A stretch of 64,000 nucleotides of DNA, from contig JBDOQK010000006.1 in the NCBI GenBank assembly GCA_040437565.1, forward strand, positions 434,001 through 498,000. Reading direction: 5' to 3'. Positions 661-39,186 of this stretch are shown piece by piece. The translations under genes and the position numbers were made by a program. The stretch comes from Albugo candida. Lineage: Eukaryota. Every line of letters begins with the position of its first letter. The first letter of the stretch is position 1. The notes below the pieces were generated by a model. It searched no databases, was not told the DNA's origin, and saw only the letters and a program-made list of their open reading frames with translations.

Positions 661-2040
661 ATGGAGAATTATGTGAGTGAAGAAACTATACGTCGTTTCT
701 TACTTCGAGTCGGCTTTCGAGAATATACCGATCAAGTGGTAGCGTTAGTTCGGTCGTCCTTGCTTGCGTTTTTGAAAAAAGTAACACGGACCATACTCAT
801 ACTTTCTAACCATTATAAATGTACAAGCATCCGATTGGTCGAAGTATTACAAGCATTAGACTTTCATCAAATCCGTCTTTATGGATTTGATGATGTTTGT
901 GTTATTGATTGGCCACGAGGAAAGGAAACGATGCATATTACCGAGTTGGTCGAGCTAAAGACAATGCTCACGACACAATGCTGTGAGCCTGAAACGGAAT
1001 TGGGACCGGGAAGTTTTTATAACCGACCAGAATTTGTTAGTAATCTAAAAAGCTGGCCAGAGGATGAGGATGAGGATGAAGACGATGAAGAAAGTGAATG
1101 GTCGTGGACAAATAATACCTCCAGTGAGGACTCTGAAGATAGTGACGCGGAAATTGAGTCAGCTGATTCGGAAACAAGCCCTACTACTGACGGAATCACA
1201 CGGTGTAAGGATCAGAAGGAACGTTTGATGCAATCAATTGAAGCTGCTCAAATGAGATGCGACCAGGAATTGATATTACAGGCATCCGAAAGCTCTGTGG
1301 ATTATGAAGACACACCAATTGGACAGGGATACTTTTCCGATTACGACGATCAAAAACGTTCACAAAATTTAAGTGATTTCGAGGCTCATTTTGTAGAAGA
1401 AAGTTCCGGGTGGAAAATATCTGAAAACTCGAAAAAAATGGAAGACGAGTATGCCGAACGAATACTCAAATCGGAGAACGATCGCGTTGATGGAAATCAG
1501 TACCTGATGTCTCGTCAATGTTTCGCCGATCTGTTCAAAATGATATTGTGTCAGCACCGAACCGTTTCGTCAGCTGCACTTAGTGCCTTACACAACGCTA
1601 CCGAAGGCTACCTGCATCGCTGTCTGACAGAAGGACATTTGGGTGAGGAAATTAAATCCATTCTGCTCACAGATCAAGCCAAACATACAAGAAACATTGC
1701 GTCCATCCTACAGAATCAATTGGATGAAAAGAATGCCAAGGTAACTGAGCAAGAAGTCGTGATTGCGGAAATGAAATGTAAGCAAGAGGAATTACAAAAT
1801 CATATCTTACAGCTACAAAAATTGTTGTATGGGAAAGATGGTGGCAAAGAGAACGATAACCCCAACGCCGACTGCCGTTTCGATGGATCTAGTCTCGGTA
1901 AAACTCCTCCGTTACTTTCTTACAGACAAATACTAATACGTGGTGCGTTATGAACAGGGAAACGAAAGAAGACTTTTGATCTGAAAAATACAAACGAAAT
2001 GTTTCCGGAAAGTAAAAAAATACGGTTGGGCACGCTATAG
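661..2040 (+). CDS. Double histone-fold protein: H4-like fold, acidic linker, H3-like fold, coiled coil, bipartite NLS
   Basis: ORF 592-1953; ATG 661 is favoured because an Inr-like TCATTC lies at 635-640. Nt 670-888 align without gaps to histone H4, ending in LYGF; nt ~1447-1698 resemble H3. A predicted intron at 1898-1957 (GTAAAA...TACTAAT...CAG) adds GKRKKTFDLKNTNEMFPESKKIRLGTL* ending at 2040. Confidence 0.75.
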
Positions 2041-5109: not shown

Positions 5110-6743
5110 TCACGATCGGAATTCCTCGCCGCCCGTCATCTCTGTGAATTTACTTGCAAAATCAAAGTCTTCCGTCTTGCTCTTGCTATCTTCATCGTCA
5201 TCAAAGATCCATGTGGTTCCTGGAACGTATTTCGCGTCTTCCGAGTCATTCACTCCCACCGGAAGCTTTGTGCCTTTTGCATACAGCGGTCCAGTCCCCG
5301 GCATTGCGTCCGCTATCATGGTCGTCTCGCCGATATCTTCGACTCGATGGAGCAAATTCTTTGCCAAAATGCTACCCGTTCCAGCTTTCTTGAAGAAGGA
5401 ATGCTTTAGGAGCGCCGATGTCGCCGGTCTGAAAGTCAAATTCAATACAAAAAGCAAGATAAAAATCGATGAAAGAAACCTTTTCGTGGGATCTTTTTGT
5501 AAGCAAATTTTGACGACGTCTTTGAAATGGCGCGTAAACTCGTATCCAGTTCCATCGTCCTATCCAGCGTCACCTTTCGGCATCGATCGCAATGGACGAG
5601 CACAGGGGCACTTACATCATATGTTCGAAGTGAAGGCGGGTCTTCCTGCAGTGTCAGTAATAAGACCTACAGAAAAAACTTGAGCGATTGTCTTGGCTTT
5701 GTAAAGGGTACCTTCATCGGCTGGAAACGCGCGTACGGAGCGTATCCTTTAGCGAGTTCCAAAGCGGTGATTCCAAATGACCAAATATCGGCTTTGTAGT
5801 CGTATCCTCGAACTTGCTCCATGACTTCAGGTGCCATCCAACACGGAGTCCCAACAAATGTCTGTACAACAGTTTAGAAGATGTATTTTCGTGAAAGAGA
5901 GCTATTTGGACCTGACGATTCTTCCGTCGATCTCCACCCTCCATCATCCATCCAGAAACGCCGAAATCCGCGATCACAACGTGCCCTTCACTGTCGAGCA
6001 AAATGTTTCCGGCCTTAATATCTCTAAAGCGAATTTTGTTGAGAAAACGCGAAAAGAGACGTAACCATATGAATGTACCGATGGATTTGGCCATTTTCAT
6101 GGAAATACTGCAACCCTTTCAGAGTTTCATGCAGAATCACCGCCAAAAACTCTTCTTTGAGACCTTCGCCGAGGCCTTTTTTCTTTAAGACATTCATTAC
6201 GTGCAAGCATGACCCTGATGNNNNNNNNNNNNNNNNNNNNNNNNNNNNNNNNNNNNNNNNNNNNNNNNNNNNNNNNNNNNNNNNNNNNNNNNNNNNNNNN
6301 NNNNNNNNNNNNNNNNNNNNCCATAGTTGATCTCTATGCACAAAACTGTGTGGACCTGTTAGATTCAATGCAATTCATTCAATTCTTGATGGATTGGAAC
6401 CTGCAGTAACATTTCAACACATTTGGATGATTGGTCATTTTCATCGTTTGTACTTCGGCCTAAAGAGAACGCTTTAAGTACGTTCTCGTTTTGGTAAAGA
6501 ATGGTTTTATGTACTCGAATATCTTCGAAGCTTGTCGTGATTTTTTCCAGATCCATTATCTTTAGCGCGACATCGACGTTTTTTTTAATACAGTGCGCCT
6601 TCCATACTTTTGCGAAAGCGCCCTACAGAAACGAGTGGATACTATAAATGGTACACGACGATAGAGAGATGACTGCGCACTTGGCCTATTTGTTCGACAA
6701 GGCGATAGTCTGAGGCATTGGTTGGCCACTCATCTGACATCAT
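5110..6743 (-). CDS. STE20-family Ser/Thr kinase, OSR1/SPAK (Fray)-like, multi-exon, spans an N gap
   Basis: Spliced pieces: [105 protein letters not shown]. Confidence 0.88.
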
Positions 6744-7255: not shown

Positions 7256-7716
<461 letters not shown>

Positions 7717-8519: not shown

Positions 8520-9727
8520 GCGCTCAAAAAAAATAACTCAATTTTTTTACACATAGCGTCTGGATAAATTGAATGCTTTTTGTGCTGTATTCAGTCACCT
8601 TAGTCAATTGTCAAAAATTGGAATTATCTGACGATGATCAGCGTTTTGAACAGCTAAGAGCTTTGAGTAGTCATGATGAGTTAAGTTACCAACTATTGCG
8701 GAAATTCACGATGTCAGAGTAGATAGTGACAATAAAAACGTGTTTTATCGCGCTTGCGTACACTTTAATTCGAAATATTGAGTCAACGTTTTCATGAGTG
8801 TTTTTTTTTAACCGAGTTTTTGTACGTGTGACATACCGGTGACGAATTTCGTTATCATGACCTTTCAGGAGAAAAATTCAGCCAATAAGCTGATGGAGCA
8901 CGCTCCTTTTTGGAACGTTCACGCATGCAATGTGCAACTCAACCAAAAAGATTATAGTACTATACGCTAACGGTACATTTATGATAGTTGTAAAGCTACT
9001 GCACCGACATCAAGTATACTTGTAGATGCAAACGCACATTACTTATTTGTATACCAGCTGGAAACCGGAACTCCGTAAATCAATGTTGGCTGGTATTATC
9101 TTGGTAAACCTTAATCCCTCTGATCGTCGACTATTTCGCAACCGTAATGAATACTTTATCCATGTATTAATCACTTTGAAAATTGTTATAGCACATAAAT
9201 TGATACTTTCTCTCTGCCACACGAATGCGTGGAGCACAAACAGTNNNNNNNNNNNNNNNNNNNNNNNNNNNNNNNNNNNNNNNNNNNNNNNNNNNNNNNN
9301 NNNNNNNNNNNNNNNNNNNNNNNNNNNNNNNNNNNNNNNNNNNNAAAATTGTTATAGCACATAAATTGATACTTTCTCTCTGCCACACGAATGCGTGGAG
9401 CACAAACAGTCAATAGTTTGACTTGTGTGTAAATCTGTCTCCCTTTCTGACAACGTAAGCAGAAGGGACATACTGTTTGGTGCCTTGGCTCCACTTTGAT
9501 AAAATACCAAATGCGTCCGCCTTGCAAAAACTTCTTCTAGTATACACCATTTATTGATATCAAGTCAAATTATACAAGTTACGGAAGAAGCTCAACGATT
9601 AGGCAACATTACAGTTTGGAATTTATTTGTTCAGCATTAGAAACGCCATTACTAAGCATTCAACATAGTCAGCAAATAATATTGCAAACCACATTATACC
9701 TATAGCATTCTGAACGGCTCCGCTGTC

Positions 9728-12031
9728 ATGGACCACGGCACGAGCCCCGATGAAAAGTTGAAGTTAGATGATGATGCGGAGGATATAGTTACCGAGCAAG
9801 CAATCGTCAATGAGGACACCGACACTGTAAAAAACCACAAGCAAGAGGTTTCCACCACACTGCAACCTGTTATTTCCAATGTTGTACAAATATTGCACGA
9901 AAGTATGCAGCGGTCGTGGGGAAATGTACGTACGAGTACCTGTGTTTTGTTTACAAGTACATCCTGAACAAAACGTGTAGGCACTCTGTCAAATCACTCA
10001 CAAATACGAGTGCCCGTTATCTGAGGTATACTGCAAGCTATTTTTACCTTACAAAGTTATGTGATGAATGTCTTGTAGTATGAAAGCGTCCTCACAGAGC
10101 AAACTAACTGGACTCCATTGGATTCCAATAAGAAGGCTCAATCCCTCATCCAGGAGTTGCACGAGACTAAAAATCGTGTAAAGGAAACCCAGAAGAACTT
10201 ACATACTTTACAATCGGAACACAATTTCCTGACTGAGAAACTAAATGTCTATCGCCTCGTAACCACTGAATTTCGACGTGAATTACTTAGTGAGCGTCTC
10301 GCACATATCGATTCTGTTAAAGAAACCGATGAACTGCGTGCTATGTTGAATGGAACCGGTACGGACATTTTGGTCAATAAACACGAAGACGTTAATGACC
10401 CCTGGCACAAGACTTCGGGGCAAATAGATGACCGAAATCATGAGCATGGATCTAACGTGTCGTTGTTCACTTCTTTCTATTCCACCTCTGCTGAAAACAA
10501 TGAACAAGAGTTTGGAGATGAAGAAAATATGTCCTGTACGCTGAGTGCACAACGGTCGTTACAAAGTACACTCATGGACCAATTTCTTCCCTCAACATTA
10601 CTGGATTCTCCTCAAGCAGCTACACAGTCGAAAAAATTTCAGTACGTTGATGAGGAAATAAAAGAGGTTGAAGAGGATTCATCTCGCATCTTGAATTGTA
10701 AAGGTTGTAGCAACATGTACTTTACGACGGATACAAAATGTCACGAGTGTGGTAAAGATGTTGCACCAAGCACTGAGGAAATTCCTCATGAATCGGAAAC
10801 CGAAACTCAAGAGAATGAACAAGAAACGAGTATCTCTACGACCATTTCCTCAATTTTGACAGAAATATTTGACTTTATGCCGATGCAAGACGTGGAAAAG
10901 GTTTTACAGCAAGCAGAGGGGGAAACCTCTTTGGCGGTAAACTACATCCTCCGAAACCATCCTAGTTTGAATCCATCGATTTCTACTGACCCAAATACTC
11001 AAAGACCAAATCTAGCTCGTTGCTTGAGTGGAAATCCCCTCACAAGTGCATCGAACAATTGGAAAACAGAACTCTGTGTATATTACTTACAAGGAAAATG
11101 CAATAAAACACGGCGAACGTGTTCTTTTGCACACGGCGAGGAGGATTTGATGCGATTGAACCGAGGCAAACTCCTCACGAATCCAGCATACAAAGCGCGA
11201 TTGTGTCCGCTCTTTATTGAAGGAAACTGTCCGAAATCAAGAAGAGACTGCCAATTAGCGCATGGAGAAGCCGACTTGAGGGAAGGTTTGCTATTGCTGA
11301 CGGCACCTTCGAGTTTGGTGAATGCAGCACCGCGACAACAAAACTACAAAACAGAGTTATGTTTGTTCTATCTTCGCGGAAACTGCAATTATGCGAAGCA
11401 AGAATGTCGATTCGCACATGGCGAAGCCGATATAAGAACAGTTCAAGATAACACACTCGAATTAATACAACGAAATGCGTCCTATCCGACGTCAGCAGTT
11501 CCTGGGAAAGCATCCGAAAAGAGCGCTGAGACATCGTCATACAATCTCCGTGGCTTGGATCGCGCCGCTATCCAGGCTCAGCATCGATACCAGCAACAGT
11601 ACCAAGAGCAGTACCAGCAATCAAGGCGCTTGCCCCCACAAACAGTCGAAGGAGGAAGGAATGTTTACCTCACATCACAGAGCTTTACAGCACCTCAATC
11701 GACAATGAATACTTCGGCACTCGTTCCACCCTCATTCCCTCATCATCCGCAGTTTCAAGTTCCTATGGAAAGTATGCACGGATTCCCAATACAATACACA
11801 TCCCAGCAATCCAACACACCAAATCGATTTATGCAGCAAGGTGGGATTTATCAGCATCATGAAGTACCACTTCACCCAACACAACAGTTCCAGCAGCAAT
11901 TATCACTTCCCAACTCACAAGTTTCTGGTCAGTCACGAGATCCCCGAACACCTCAAAACCCGCGATACAGTGCACTCAATCCGGCATTCCGTCGTTCCAC
12001 AAATCACGATCAGGGATCTTGGTCGACCTGA
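9728..12031 (+). CDS. Triple CCCH zinc-finger protein with coiled coil, CxxC-CxxC ribbon, CUE-like domain and Q/P-rich tail
   Basis: Three (W/Y)K(T/A)xLC-x7-C-x7-C-x3-HG fingers; CUE-like ILTEIFDFMPMQDVEKVLQQAEGETSLAVNYIL; predicted 5' exons 9728-9925 and ~9981-10025 splice into the 637-aa ORF frame. Confidence 0.85.
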
Positions 12032-18539: not shown

Positions 18540-21500
18540 TTACGCAAACTTCATATTTCTGGAGAAATAGGATCGTTTTTCCCGTTCTGATTGTTCCTTA
18601 TCCGAATGCAATTCCCCGCACTCTTTTGCCGATTGTGATGCGCTTTGAACCGTTATATTGCTCATTTCCAGACATTCTTCTTGTTTGAATAAATTACGCA
18701 AGCTTCGGGTCGATTCGGCACTCCGAATGACGGAGCCAGATGTTTCGATAGTGGAGGCACGAGGTCGCAGGGACAGAGGCTTTTGTGAAAGTGCCAATTG
18801 AAATGTGTCTGTGGCTCCAATTGACACCTCCTTTAGCATTTTTTTTTTGGTTTGTTTCGACTTTTTCTGACTTGAGAATGAAAATGGGACGACATAATTG
18901 TAATTTGCCACATGTGTCAATGTCTTCAAAGGCGCTAATGCTTCGAAATTCGCCCAACGCGATGTACCAAATTGATCGCGAAGAAAATTGGCAATATTTG
19001 TAAAGTTTCGGCCGACTTGAGACAAAATGTCGAGAATCACATCGCGACGAATACGTAGCAGCAGGTTCATCAATGAGCATGTTTTATCGCAGTACACCAA
19101 TGCATGTATTTTGATCTGAAAGCCTCGCATTTCCTCGAGCGATTGCTGAGAAGAAGCATTGTCCTTGTTCTTGTACGTGACAAAAGCTTCGATGGTACCG
19201 ATGCGAATGTGCTTGAACAAAAACTTTCTCGATTCAGACCGTCCACGAGCTCGAATTTCCGGGTCTTGGAGCTCTTCGTCGTCCTCTCCCGGCGATTCCG
19301 ACTCAATGCGACTGTCGATTAATGACTCTTTTCGAGTCGAACTGCTGGTAATAAACTCTTTCCAATCTTTTGGTCGGATCACTTCTGTCGATGACCGTAT
19401 TTGAATGCCACTAGCCCACGTATACGGTGTAGTACGAGACGCAATTTGAGCCGCTTTGCGAAGTGCTGTGCCAACTCCAAGTCGTTCATTGGTATACGTG
19501 CCTTGATTTTGAGCATCTAAAGTCAGAAATTGAGATCTTATGTGCTGTGCATTTTTCTTGGCGACTTGAGATGTTGTGGTTTCCATAGAGGAAGAAAAAT
19601 AGGTCGATAGCTGAAGGATTAAATCTTGGGTGATGCAAAGCTGGACTGGATGAACGTTGACCTCAAAATGCTGAATAACGCCAAGCTCTCCACACGGACG
19701 AGTGATTTCAGCGTCCATACGCAGGAAGAAATCGTTTTCGCCAATGCAAGTTGTGTTGGAAGTTGGTAGAAGAAGTTCGGGGTAATAGGTTCCAGGACTG
19801 AGATTCCAACACGAAAAATTTTCAATTTTTAATGAGCACGCACCCGACTTGTCTTTTTGCTGTTTGAGCGTGAAAACGACCTCATTCAATCTCAGTTGTA
19901 AGATGTCTGCGTGGATAGCGCCGAGACGTACTATCGAACTATGAAGCGCAAATTCGACTTTTGTACTGGATCGCTTTGCCGACTTGTTGGTAGCCTGGAT
20001 GCCGAGTTTACGCACTGCCTCACATATCACATCATATTCTGTGGTCGCTCGTTTGATTTCCGTCGTAAGAGGATCTCCAGAGTCTGTGTAAATGCCTGAC
20101 GTCGAGGAAGAATGAGAAGATGGTATTCTTGGACGTGGTGCTCCAAAAGCATTCACATAGTAATCTTGATCGCAATCAGCAGCTCGTCTTTCGATGGAGG
20201 CATTCCATTGACACGATTGCCACCATTGCAGGTACGAGATCTCCCACTGTAATTGTTTTTTCAACAAACTCATCTGCTTTAAGGAATTAGGATCCGTGTT
20301 TCCAGCTTTTGCCAGTCGTTTTACTTGCGAGTTCCAAAGACTTTCTGATTGAGCGTCTCGAGAGTCTTTAGCGTCCAAGATCGTCTTGATAGATTCAACA
20401 CTTTGTAGTATGATATCTTTACAGGTGACATGCAAATTCGCCTGTAGATCAGAAATGCTTATCTGTACATCTCTGGCGATGCTCGCCTCACGTGACAGCT
20501 GCACAATCACATTTAGCGGCATTGGTGCGACGACTTGGCGATACAGCCCTGATGTAGTTGGGCAGTATGATCCATCCGCCAAAGCCCGAAGCCAAATGGC
20601 TTTTGACGTGACATCAACATCGAGTGGAGCAGCAAAGGACTCGGATCCGTGTATAGAAATATCGATCATTTCCAGCCTAAAATCTTGCGACACAAACTTT
20701 TTCAAAACGCCATCGTGGAGCGCTAAAAGCGTCGATCCCTACAGAGAAACCTTTGTGATGTCTTTCGCATTGGAAAAAAAGCATCACACACCTTATGAGT
20801 AGCGTCCTGGAAGTTAATTTGGCAATCGACAAACTTGAACAAGAGATAAGCTTCCATCTCGTCAAGTGGAAACGATGATGACTCACGTGTCGAATTCTGA
20901 GATTCCGATTCGGAATGGCATGTTGGCTGAAAGATTTGACCGCTTTCAAATCTCTCTCCATTCAGAATCGCGAAAAATTTCGGATCTTCAGCCAGTGATG
21001 TAGGTTTCTTTGGTGTCACAACAGTGTCCGAGGGATGCTCGACTGAATCCCGGCATATTGTGCTATTTCCAGCGACGTTTTCCTGTCGAGAGAGAACTCG
21101 AAGTAAATGTAATCCGCTATGGACAATATCAATCAATGTTTTGATTCCTTCAAGCGTCAGCAAAATTCGCATTTCTTTCGTTCCAAAACCCATCCGAAAG
21201 CCTGAATGACGAAATTCTTGGAGAAAAACGCATTGAGAATCGTATTCGTGTTGATTCTTCTCACTCAAAACTTCCTCTTCGGTATCTCTGAATCGAAAGG
21301 GATTGTGTTGTGTTATTGCAAAGTGATCCAAGATGCTTTTCCTCGAACTGGATCGATCTTCTTTAGCGGTAAAGTCTTGATGGCGAGACTTTGATTCCGA
21401 AGGCTTCAAGCTCGAAACGACCTTCAAATCATCCATTTTTGACCTCTTCCCTCCAACATGCACACACGCGTAATGCACGGAAAAGCAGGGCTCTCCTCGG

Positions 21501-30194: not shown

Positions 30195-30267
30195 TCCCAA
30201 TTAGTCTAGGCGGTTAGGATACGTGGCTTTCACCCACGCGACCCGGGTTCGAGTCCCGGATTGGGAA
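30195..30267 (+). tRNA. tRNA-Glu (anticodon TTC)
   Basis: Acceptor stem TCCCAAT/ATTGGGA, D arm TAGTCTAGGCGGTTAGGATA, anticodon arm CGTGG-CTTTCAC-CCACG, T arm CCGGG-TTCGAGT-CCCGG, followed by T runs. Confidence 0.95.
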
Positions 30268-38346: not shown

Positions 38347-39186
38347 TCAGAACGGACGGATGCTTGCAGTACCTCGGAGTGAGTTTTTTAAGGCTTTTGG
38401 GTCGGCCCAAGAAGATGTCATGTAATCGTCAGCATCATCATCTGCGAGCTTTTTCATTTCTTCCTGCTTTTTGAAGTAAAACGCCATCATTGCTTTTTGC
38501 TCCTCTTCGGTAACTCCTGGCTCTCTTGACGGCATACCACCTCCTTTTTTCTGCAATTTAACAATAATCTTTGTTTTTTCGTTCTTTCCAACCATATCAC
38601 AAACAGTTTGGTCACGATAGAATTGTTTTCCAGCCCACCACAGTTCTGTGTTCTCAACATTTGTCACATCCAAGCTTGCTGCACGATCTGCAAGTGCTTC
38701 TTCCACATTTTCACGGTCTAATAGATTTTTGATAGGATCATGAGGGGGTAAACCCATTGGAAATGCCATCATGATAGCTCCTCTGATGTTCATGAGCTTT
38801 TCATTTAATTCGTGACGTGTGGTACACCTTTTCATCTGGAATTGCTGGAGATATTGTTTCGCATCTTCAGACACTTTGGCCATTGTCTCACGAAGTTGCG
38901 GACTCACACCTTCTCCAGTACGTAAGCCCAGAGGGTCCTCTTCATAAAACTCGCCTCGCGTTTTCTTCACACTGCAATCCTGATATGCATCAAGGCCCTG
39001 TTCGTTTGGTTTCATTGCGACACCAAATCTTCCCAAATCGGTAAGTGCATCTGCTAGCGCTGCCAAGCGAATTCGAGTGTTGTTGAGGTGGCACAGATCA
39101 AAGATAAGGTCTTCATTACTCGTTTCCGTACTAGCTTCATGTAGAAACTCATTCTTATCGCCGCGTTTCACGTGGAACAAAACCAT
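38347..39186 (-). CDS. CFAP298: Cilia- and flagella-associated protein 298 (C21orf59/Kurly/FBB18)
   Basis: MVLFHVKRGD start, RGAIMMAFPMGLPPHDP, ELWWAGK, GKNEKTKIIVKLQKKGGGMPSREP, WADPKALK. Confidence 0.92.
   Translation of the reverse strand: MVLFHVKRGDKNEFLHEASTETSNEDLIFDLCHLNNTRIRLAALADALTDLGRFGVAMKPNEQGLDAYQDCSVKKTRGEFYEEDPLGLRTGEGVSPQLRETMAKVSEDAKQYLQQFQMKRCTTRHELNEKLMNIRGAIMMAFPMGLPPHDPIKNLLDRENVEEALADRAASLDVTNVENTELWWAGKQFYRDQTVCDMVGKNEKTKIIVKLQKKGGGMPSREPGVTEEEQKAMMAFYFKKQEEMKKLADDDADDYMTSSWADPKALKNSLRGTASIRPF

Follow-up and report, generated by a model that had tools for sequence, protein, structure and literature searches.

Near the start of a 64,000-nucleotide (nt) stretch of the oomycete Albugo candida genome (GenBank assembly GCA_040437565.1, contig JBDOQK010000006.1, forward-strand positions 434,001 to 498,000; hereafter 'the window', numbered from its first letter), a gene at 592-2040 on the + strand encodes a strongly acidic protein of 462 amino acids (aa), in which an H4-like block close to the N-terminus (the N-block) is followed, after a long acidic linker, by a shorter segment resembling histone H3 (the C-block). 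The gene is real, spliced and conserved in oomycetes. Our preferred reading, held with moderate confidence, is that the protein is of histone descent at two places and that these two parts form a clasped, non-nucleosomal module; the protein is probably nuclear and, given its isoelectric point (pI) of 4.86, probably not a DNA-wrapping histone. What is new, as far as could be seen, is the H4-plus-H3 make-up and the range of the family that displays it; the presence of a histone fold as such is not, since a Plasmopara record already bears the automatic database name 'Histone-fold'.

The spliced gene and its two histone-like blocks

The open reading frame (ORF) on the + strand spans 592-1953, with an ATG at 592. 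The initial annotation, a model's reading of the window's letters, had let the gene begin at 661. This start had to be given up: because the N-terminal MQYCVRKR aligns with the MEYRVRKR that opens the orthologs, the protein starts at 592, 23 codons (69 nt) further upstream. The spliced coding sequence is 1389 nt long and the encoded protein has a mass of 53.4 kDa. The gene and the parts of its product are arranged as follows:

592-1897, + strand: exon 1, aa 1-435 plus the first base of codon 436 (ORF and ortholog start)
1898-1957, + strand: intron, 60 nt, GT..AG (donor g/GTAAAA, acceptor AACAG/g)
1958-2040, + strand: exon 2, the last 27 codons plus the TAG stop (2038-2040), with basic motifs GKRKK and KKIRLGTL
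592-669, + strand: N-lead, aa 1-26, with a conserved basic VRKR patch and without a G/K-rich H4 tail (conservation track)
670-888, + strand: H4-derived histone fold (N-block), aa 27-99, from alpha1 to the C-terminal LYGF
889-1497, + strand: acidic linker, aa 100-302
1498-1683, + strand: H3-like block (C-block), aa 303-364 (profile and hhalign evidence)
aa 304-319, + strand: helix A of the C-block, corresponding to H3 alpha1
aa 320-327, + strand: loop, corresponding to H3 L1
aa 328-347, + strand: helix B, corresponding to H3 alpha2 up to L109
aa 348 and 349-364, + strand: Gly348 (89% conserved) and an amphipathic helix without an H3 match
1684-1845, + strand: predicted coiled coil, aa 365-418, with heptad hydrophobics L373, L377, V384 and I391

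The intron and the spliced last exon, both called in the initial annotation, were borne out by a contig of the public run X1 that covers 500-1896 without differences and continues at 1957-2300, exactly 60 nt being absent; no X1 contig covers the intron. Since the X7 contig is identical to that of X1 in length and depth, X1 and X7 were counted as one data set. A low-depth contig of run X11 spans 1520-2008 with the intron present, and a contig of X5 enters the intron. The deletion of 60 nt with GT..AG borders restores the frame, and splicing is therefore the best reading; the spliced tail, unlike the read-through tail, aligns with the ortholog motifs GKRK, xL[RK]x and KKx[KR][IV]xP. The X1 contig that lacks the intron is 9940 nt long and extends ~8 kb past the start of the window, across a divergent Ask1 gene (see below); as it merges several genes, it is no evidence of a single transcript.

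As judged by sequence comparison, the N-block is a complete H4-type fold of histone descent. Aligned without gaps to G28-F100 of canonical H4, aa 27-99 show 20 identities in 73 positions – precisely the hand count made earlier for nt 670-888 – and the BLOSUM62 score of 75 was reached by 0 of 1000 shuffles (mean -25.5, standard deviation (sd) 9.5, maximum 15). In the PDB, a single-sequence phmmer search finds H4 with an E-value of 0.0086, again gaplessly (5-76 against 6-77), and a family profile of 29 members finds it with an E-value of 1.7e-7, the best 60 of 107 matches all being H4. Alignment by hhalign to 27 single H4-like proteins yields a probability of 99.5% (E 1e-22, 75 columns). It is this end-to-end match to H4 that places the N-block in the histone-fold superfamily. 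Kept in at least 70% of members are H4 R35, R36, R40, G42, R55, F61, H75, R78, D85, V86, A89, G94, Y98 and G99, and the intra-fold R78-D85 pair is kept in 70-80%. Not one member (0%) retains R45 or K79, two residues with which H4 contacts DNA; of the 73 H4 positions 12-24 are preserved, and most core alpha2 positions are altered. The LYGF motif, earlier taken to be specific to H4, also occurs in TAF6 and so is not strictly H4-specific. The description of the protein as tail-less holds for the G/K tail, which is absent, and fails for the 26-aa N-lead: its conserved RKR patch is paired by BLASTP with the KRHR patch of a divergent H4 (YCVRKR with YCHGKRHR; 25/98 identities, E 2e-10). As an identity for the whole protein, core histone H4 or a variant of it was rejected: the N-lead lacks the G/K tail, 363 residues follow the YGF, and R45 and K79 are lost.

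The C-block is H3-like only over alpha1-L1-alpha2 (H3 ~57-109) and only at the level of the family profile. A profile of 18 C-blocks (A4), searched against the PDB (177,635 distinct sequences), gave 33 matches, 23 of them of H3 type (best E 0.027); the top eight are all H3, Cse4 or viral H3 halves in a constant register (H3 ~61-112), and the remaining 10 are coiled coils and designed helices. When the family was aligned by hhalign to the window's own H3, the register was H3 57-110, the one chosen in the initial annotation, with a score of 23.4 that none of 200 shuffles reached (mean 9.6, sd 1.8). A hidden Markov model (HMM) of the C-blocks of 47 members, scored against 462 decoys, of which 338 are window ORFs and 124 are stored proteins from outside the family, ranks the gene first and places at ranks 2-12 holders of an H3 part or multi-histone fusion models; the eight of these 11 that were inspected all hold an H3 part, the fusion models P0060, P0065 and P0081, which are expected to hold one, not being among the eight. 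Against a small profile of H3 halves, hhalign returns a probability of 96.2% over 52 columns (1.0-1.5% against H4 profiles) and an E-value of 2.1e-9, which is optimistic because the profile was built after the best-scoring sequences were known. Most members keep H3 I62, F67, A88, A91, L92, E97 and L100.

The profile searches thus uphold the claim that an H4-type part precedes an H3-type part in one polypeptide, in the same order as in the doublets of Marseilleviridae. Of the H3-like half as originally drawn, alpha1-L1-alpha2 stands, by family profile and hhalign; the matches proposed for alphaN (EYAERILKS) and between KSILLTD and VTIMPKD are unsupported, as no alignment extends beyond H3 L109. 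To speak of both folds in one polypeptide was correct as regards a complete first fold and the presence of an H3-type segment, and overstated as regards the second fold, which is recognisable only as alpha1-L1-alpha2: neither L2 and alpha3 nor an R116-D123-type pair can be aligned in the H3 part. Set against the two folds of a double histone fold, the first is complete, and the second is matched up to H3 L109 and is then helical without an H3 match.

The D/E/S-rich linker between the blocks is indeed acidic, as had been noted, and at 203 aa is longer than the ~185 aa first estimated: it holds 56 D+E against 18 K+R, together with 37 S+T, and has a pI of 4.05. It contains conserved acidic-aromatic islands (H.TE.VE, EPDxEPG, SEWS, AQxxVD, GQGYxSDxDD and EDxxW). 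Searched alone, it gave nothing meaningful in the PDB and no match in Pfam. A GAT/GAG-rich stretch at 1059-1095, which codes for a D/E run, draws pieces of unrelated contigs in public runs, and depth there is uninformative for that reason. Behind the C-block, a variable loop lies between the helix 349-364 and the conserved, heptad-spaced hydrophobics of the predicted coiled coil, a part whose PDB matches are solely coiled-coil proteins. In the tail (1846-1897 plus 1958-2037), the last ~20 residues carry [ST]L[RKQ]xx... and a terminal K[KR]x[KR][IV]xP, kept in the most distant members; this motif is more specific than a generic nuclear localisation signal (NLS) and may serve in docking. The median net charge in the family is +6 for the N-block, +1 for the C-block and -24 for the whole protein.

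Family range and comparison with known histone-fold proteins

A word-indexed search returned 38 homologs, every named one from an oomycete (Phytophthora, Peronospora, Hyaloperonospora, Plasmopara, Bremia, Peronosclerospora, Nothophytophthora, Pythium, Globisporangium and Aphanomyces). An exhaustive profile search added Saprolegniales, namely Thraustotheca and a second Aphanomyces paralog, as well as a clade of six metagenome proteins of like layout; a homolog search with P0058, from among the distant metagenome members, found only P0058 itself. Both blocks are present in all 47 aligned members, and no C-block protein without an H4-like block was seen in the exhaustive search. The phylogeny is a quick tree, which separates the Saprolegniales, the metagenome clade and the group that holds the window's protein; within the last, the window's protein branches below Pythium, Globisporangium, and Phytophthora with the downy mildews. 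This is broadly congruent with oomycete relationships and therefore fits vertical descent, so that the earlier designation of the gene as cellular is sustained by both the homolog searches and the tree: it is inherited vertically across oomycetes. Aphanomyces has two diverged copies, P0039 and P0064/P0191, with P0064 on a very long branch and with a degenerate N-block.

Known histone-fold families were considered as identities for the protein. The window's protein matches no Pfam family (a chance STT3 match has an E-value of 0.39); over the 47 members, the matches to histone-fold families are all sub-threshold, with Bromo_TP in four, CBFD_NFYB_HMF in four, and TAF and TFIID-31kDa in one each, both as lone matches. 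According to the accessible part of PMC4030286, Phytophthora infestans has a separate TAF6 (TAF+DUF1546+HEAT), TAF8 (Bromo_TP+TAF8_C) and TAF9. The orthology to TAF6 or TAF9 that the initial annotation had named as a competing explanation was not found: these candidates were rejected on their lone sub-threshold Pfam matches and on their own genes in P. infestans. TAF8 resembles the protein in its N-terminal histone fold, in a middle of little order and, putatively, in a basic import signal at the C-terminus; it differs in having no H3-like second block, and oomycetes have a TAF8 of their own (PMC4030286, same part). In an atlas search with the distant member P0063, TAF8 clusters came first, with a feature score of 0.78 against a bar of 0.9 and a template-modelling score (TM) of at most 0.28 on a model with a predicted TM (pTM) of 0.23; the same search with P0020 returned its own cluster only. 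TAF8 was likewise rejected: Bromo_TP is sub-threshold, TAF8_C is in no listed result, and the invariant proline-rich region of TAF8, described in excerpts from PMC6672047, is absent. TAF6, TAF8 and TAF9 are largely refuted as identities.

No TFIID-18kDa or TAF11-like family is among the Pfam matches listed (the first 25 of 44 and of 34 families; a lone weak match could sit beyond these), and no SPT3, TAF11 or TAF13 chain is among the PDB matches listed (best 60 of 107 for the N-block, 33 for the C-block), SPT3 being judged by these listed Pfam and PDB matches only, with no separate oomycete SPT3 search made. CENP-T/W/S/X and NF-Y/NC2-type folds were rejected, none being among the same PDB matches. 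SPT3 of SAGA, in which, as far as the available text of PMC13088155 goes, a TAF13-like fold is followed after a long linker by a TAF11-like one, is alike in carrying two different histone-type segments far apart in one cellular chain; it differs in the types, which here are H4 and H3, and among the matches listed nothing connects the oomycete protein with TAF13, TAF11 or SPT3, be it by sequence or by Pfam.

In comparison with the canonical histones, the N-block aligns gaplessly with H4 and keeps its R78-D85, F61 and Y98-G99; the protein departs from H4 and H3 in that there is no acetylatable G/K tail, the chain continues after YGF, the L2, alpha3 and N-tail of H3 are absent, and the net charge is negative. 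The doublets of Marseilleviridae (PDB 7N8N, 7LV8, 9CVT) likewise join an H4-type to an H3-type part in one chain. As described in the part of PMC8357426 open to us, they are compact and basic, consist of two complete folds that a short connector joins, and form nucleosome-like particles by wrapping DNA; the oomycete proteins are cellular, have an acidic connector (203 aa here) and an H3 part that is no longer recognisable after alpha2, and possess a predicted coiled coil and a basic tail. Animal 'HSIH' fusions, too, are cellular and combine H3- and H4-type folds in one chain (PMC13520046 and PMC13088155, both in part). These are at least 88% identical to human H3 and H4, mostly in H3-H4 order, with short connectors and a scattered distribution in animals (PMC13520046, in the portion cited), in contrast to the ~25% identity, fixed H4-then-H3 order, extra domains and inheritance across a stramenopile class of the oomycete family.

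By sequence, the family is no closer to viral than to cellular histones. In the PDB, the H3 halves of the viral doublets match the C-block with E-values of 0.26-0.88 as against 0.027 for cellular H3, and viral doublets are not among the best 60 of 107 N-block matches. No relatives on viral contigs were found with the search patterns used, which were narrow, and no related loci were found on metagenome contigs. Metagenomes do contain six short H4-H3 doublets of 174-245 aa (P0119, P0090, P0182, P0105, P0107 and P0121), one of which lies on a 130-kb contig. They have the same order of parts as the oomycete proteins, but complete H3 folds and neither acidic linker, coiled coil nor tail. Outside the family, nothing matches the C-block HMM better than the H3 halves of these doublets: scores for four of them lie at 17-26 bits, versus ~10.5 bits for canonical H3, and the short doublets share YxIPRSAF and LHxATExYL-like motifs with family members.

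Proposed mechanism and competing readings

In the mechanism we favour, the H4-like fold and the H3-like segment would clasp each other in a histone handshake, either within one chain or swapped between two. Pairing in cis is suggested because all tandem histone-fold proteins with a solved structure form their pair within one chain, at least on the available portion of a 2026 review (PMC13088155). The coiled coil would join two such modules, replacing the H3-H3' four-helix bundle of the lost C-terminal part of H3, and the basic tail would take the protein into the nucleus. Given the loss of several DNA-contact residues and the very acidic linker, the module would serve as a scaffold that binds proteins or associates with chromatin, or would imitate H3-H4, instead of wrapping DNA as nucleosomal histones do. 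The linker may be chaperone-like, and centromere or decoy roles, both proposed in the initial annotation, are conceivable.

Several observations weigh against a clasped module with two histone-derived parts. The H3-like part may be an incomplete histone fold: in hhalign and in the conservation pattern, no alignment passes H3 L109, and there is no counterpart to L2, alpha3 or R116-D123. The window's own 80-aa C-block alone has no H3 match in the PDB, its Smith-Waterman similarity to H3 is weak (5 of 500 shuffles reach the score), and to this comes the optimistic E-value of the H3-half profile. The linker is far longer than the connectors of known histone doublets. The predicted coiled coil and the putative NLS in the basic tail are each read from a sequence pattern and from nothing else, and the runs with the spliced contig (X1/X7) are RNA by guess only.

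Some of these points lend themselves to other explanations. If the two halves instead act in trans – the H4-like fold with a genuine H3 or CenH3, or the H3-like segment with a genuine H4 – the protein would be a histone-binding factor, an escort or a decoy, with a chaperone-like acidic linker. Such a role is possible, if clearly the lesser option: an incomplete H3-like part would leave half of the H4-like fold without a partner in cis, conservation within the N-block is highest in alpha1-L1 (RRFLLRAGF) and at the C-terminal YG, the acidic-aromatic linker islands are conserved, and the pairing of CenH3 with H4 is a precedent for a divergent histone with an invariant partner. It has to contend with a cognate H3-type segment in the same chain in 47 of 47 members, with the keeping of just 12-24 of the 73 H4 positions and the change of most core alpha2 positions, and with the cis pairing of the solved tandem folds (PMC13088155, in part). 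We regard it as unlikely that only the N-terminal part is a histone fold, which would make the protein an H4 paralog with a long C-terminal extension and the likeness of the C-block to H3 that of a generic helix-loop-helix. The search results for the window's C-block alone, the shuffles, a best PDB E-value of just 0.027 and the end of the alignments at H3 L109 all fit this explanation; set against it are the H3 type and single register of the top eight matches among the 177,635 PDB sequences, the H3-part holders (found or expected) at ranks 2-12 of the 462 decoys, and the 96% against the H3-type profile compared with 1-1.5% against the H4-type. Divergent orthology to one of the known transcription factor subunits with a histone fold (TAF8, or else TAF6 or SPT3) strikes us as highly improbable. 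The protein's TAF8-like architecture, the below-bar TAF8 clusters in the P0063 search and the sub-threshold Bromo_TP matches (4/47, best E 0.0016) speak for it; the separate TAF6, TAF8 and TAF9 of P. infestans (PMC4030286, in part), the lack of any TAF8_C, TAF6_C or TFIID-18kDa match among those listed, the H4 identity of the best 60 of 107 family-profile matches and the missing proline-rich region (PMC6672047, in part) speak against it.

Two further proposals concern origin and form. It is doubtful, though compatible with the clasped module, that the gene derives from a compact giant-virus or environmental H4-H3 doublet that an early oomycete acquired and that the acidic linker then lengthened. 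The domain order is that of the Marseilleviridae doublets, the short metagenome doublets outscore canonical H3 with the C-block HMM and share motifs with the family, and giant viruses have been suggested to exchange genes with relatives of oomycetes (PMC3749498, in the part available). The N-block, by contrast, favours single H4s, which score 55-67 bits, above the doublets, and reach an hhalign E-value of 1e-22 as compared to 1.7e-18 for doublets; the viral doublets of solved structure do not outrank cellular H3 and do not feature in the best 60 of 107 N-block matches; the short doublets match cellular H3 (E ~1e-33) far more closely than they do the solved ones of Marseilleviridae; and the narrow search of viral contigs brought up no relative. 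Since the N-block prefers single H4s and the short doublets are nearest to cellular H3, a common origin with the latter is a lead and not a result. We are similarly sceptical of the idea that a vertically inherited cellular H4-H3 doublet, possibly kin to viral or environmental doublets, forms a tetrasome-like particle of its own, made of two coiled-coil-joined pseudodimers, at a specialised location in chromatin, for instance the centromere; the gene's head-to-head neighbour is the kinetochore gene DASH/Ask1. If true, kinship with the compact doublets would make it a cellular counterpart to the viral histone doublets.

Genomic surroundings and significance

The gene for the H4/H3-like protein is accompanied in the window by the following features:

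1-516, - strand: homolog of the DASH/Dam1-complex protein Ask1, partial at the window edge (Pfam DASH_Ask1, E 3.6e-7, 30.4 bits, cut-off 20.7)
7306-7716, + strand: canonical histone H3 gene, intron-less, 136 aa
7865-8194, + strand: ubiquitin-conjugating enzyme fragment
10343-12031, + strand: CCCH zinc-finger protein
18540-20669, - strand: Hobbit/FMP27-family fragment
30195-30267, + strand: tRNA-Glu(TTC)
38347-39186, - strand: CFAP298 flagellar protein

The Ask1 gene is divergent from the H4/H3-like gene and, as 75 bp separate the two start codons, the pair may share a promoter; we take the adjacency as context only for any functional link. Oomycete Dam1-complex genes are discussed in the available part of PMC5439489. 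A motif scan found no H4 gene beside the H3 gene at 7306-7716 or elsewhere in the window. Runs of N at ~6230-6330 and ~9240-9350 show up as X in the translated ORFs.

In its available portion, the 2026 review on double histone folds (PMC13088155) catalogues archaeal, Sos, ABTB2, SPT3, bacterial and animal high-identity families, with no stramenopile one among them; the accessible text of PMC13520046 (2026) lists no stramenopile double-histone-fold family either. Among viral lineages surveyed, H4+H3 doublet genes occur only in Marseilleviridae (bioRxiv 10.1101/2021.11.30.470311, in excerpts). Literature searches on oomycete histone variants and doublets and on four locus tags brought up nothing on this family, although supplementary files could hold mentions.

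Fusions of H4 and then H3 are best known from giant viruses. The oomycete proteins make up an old, conserved and probably expressed cellular family that combines both histone types, its remodelling consisting in an acidic linker, a predicted coiled coil and a basic tail; they would represent another route by which core histones became recycled into non-nucleosomal parts. As such, the family would offer a testable entry to oomycete chromatin or kinetochore biology.

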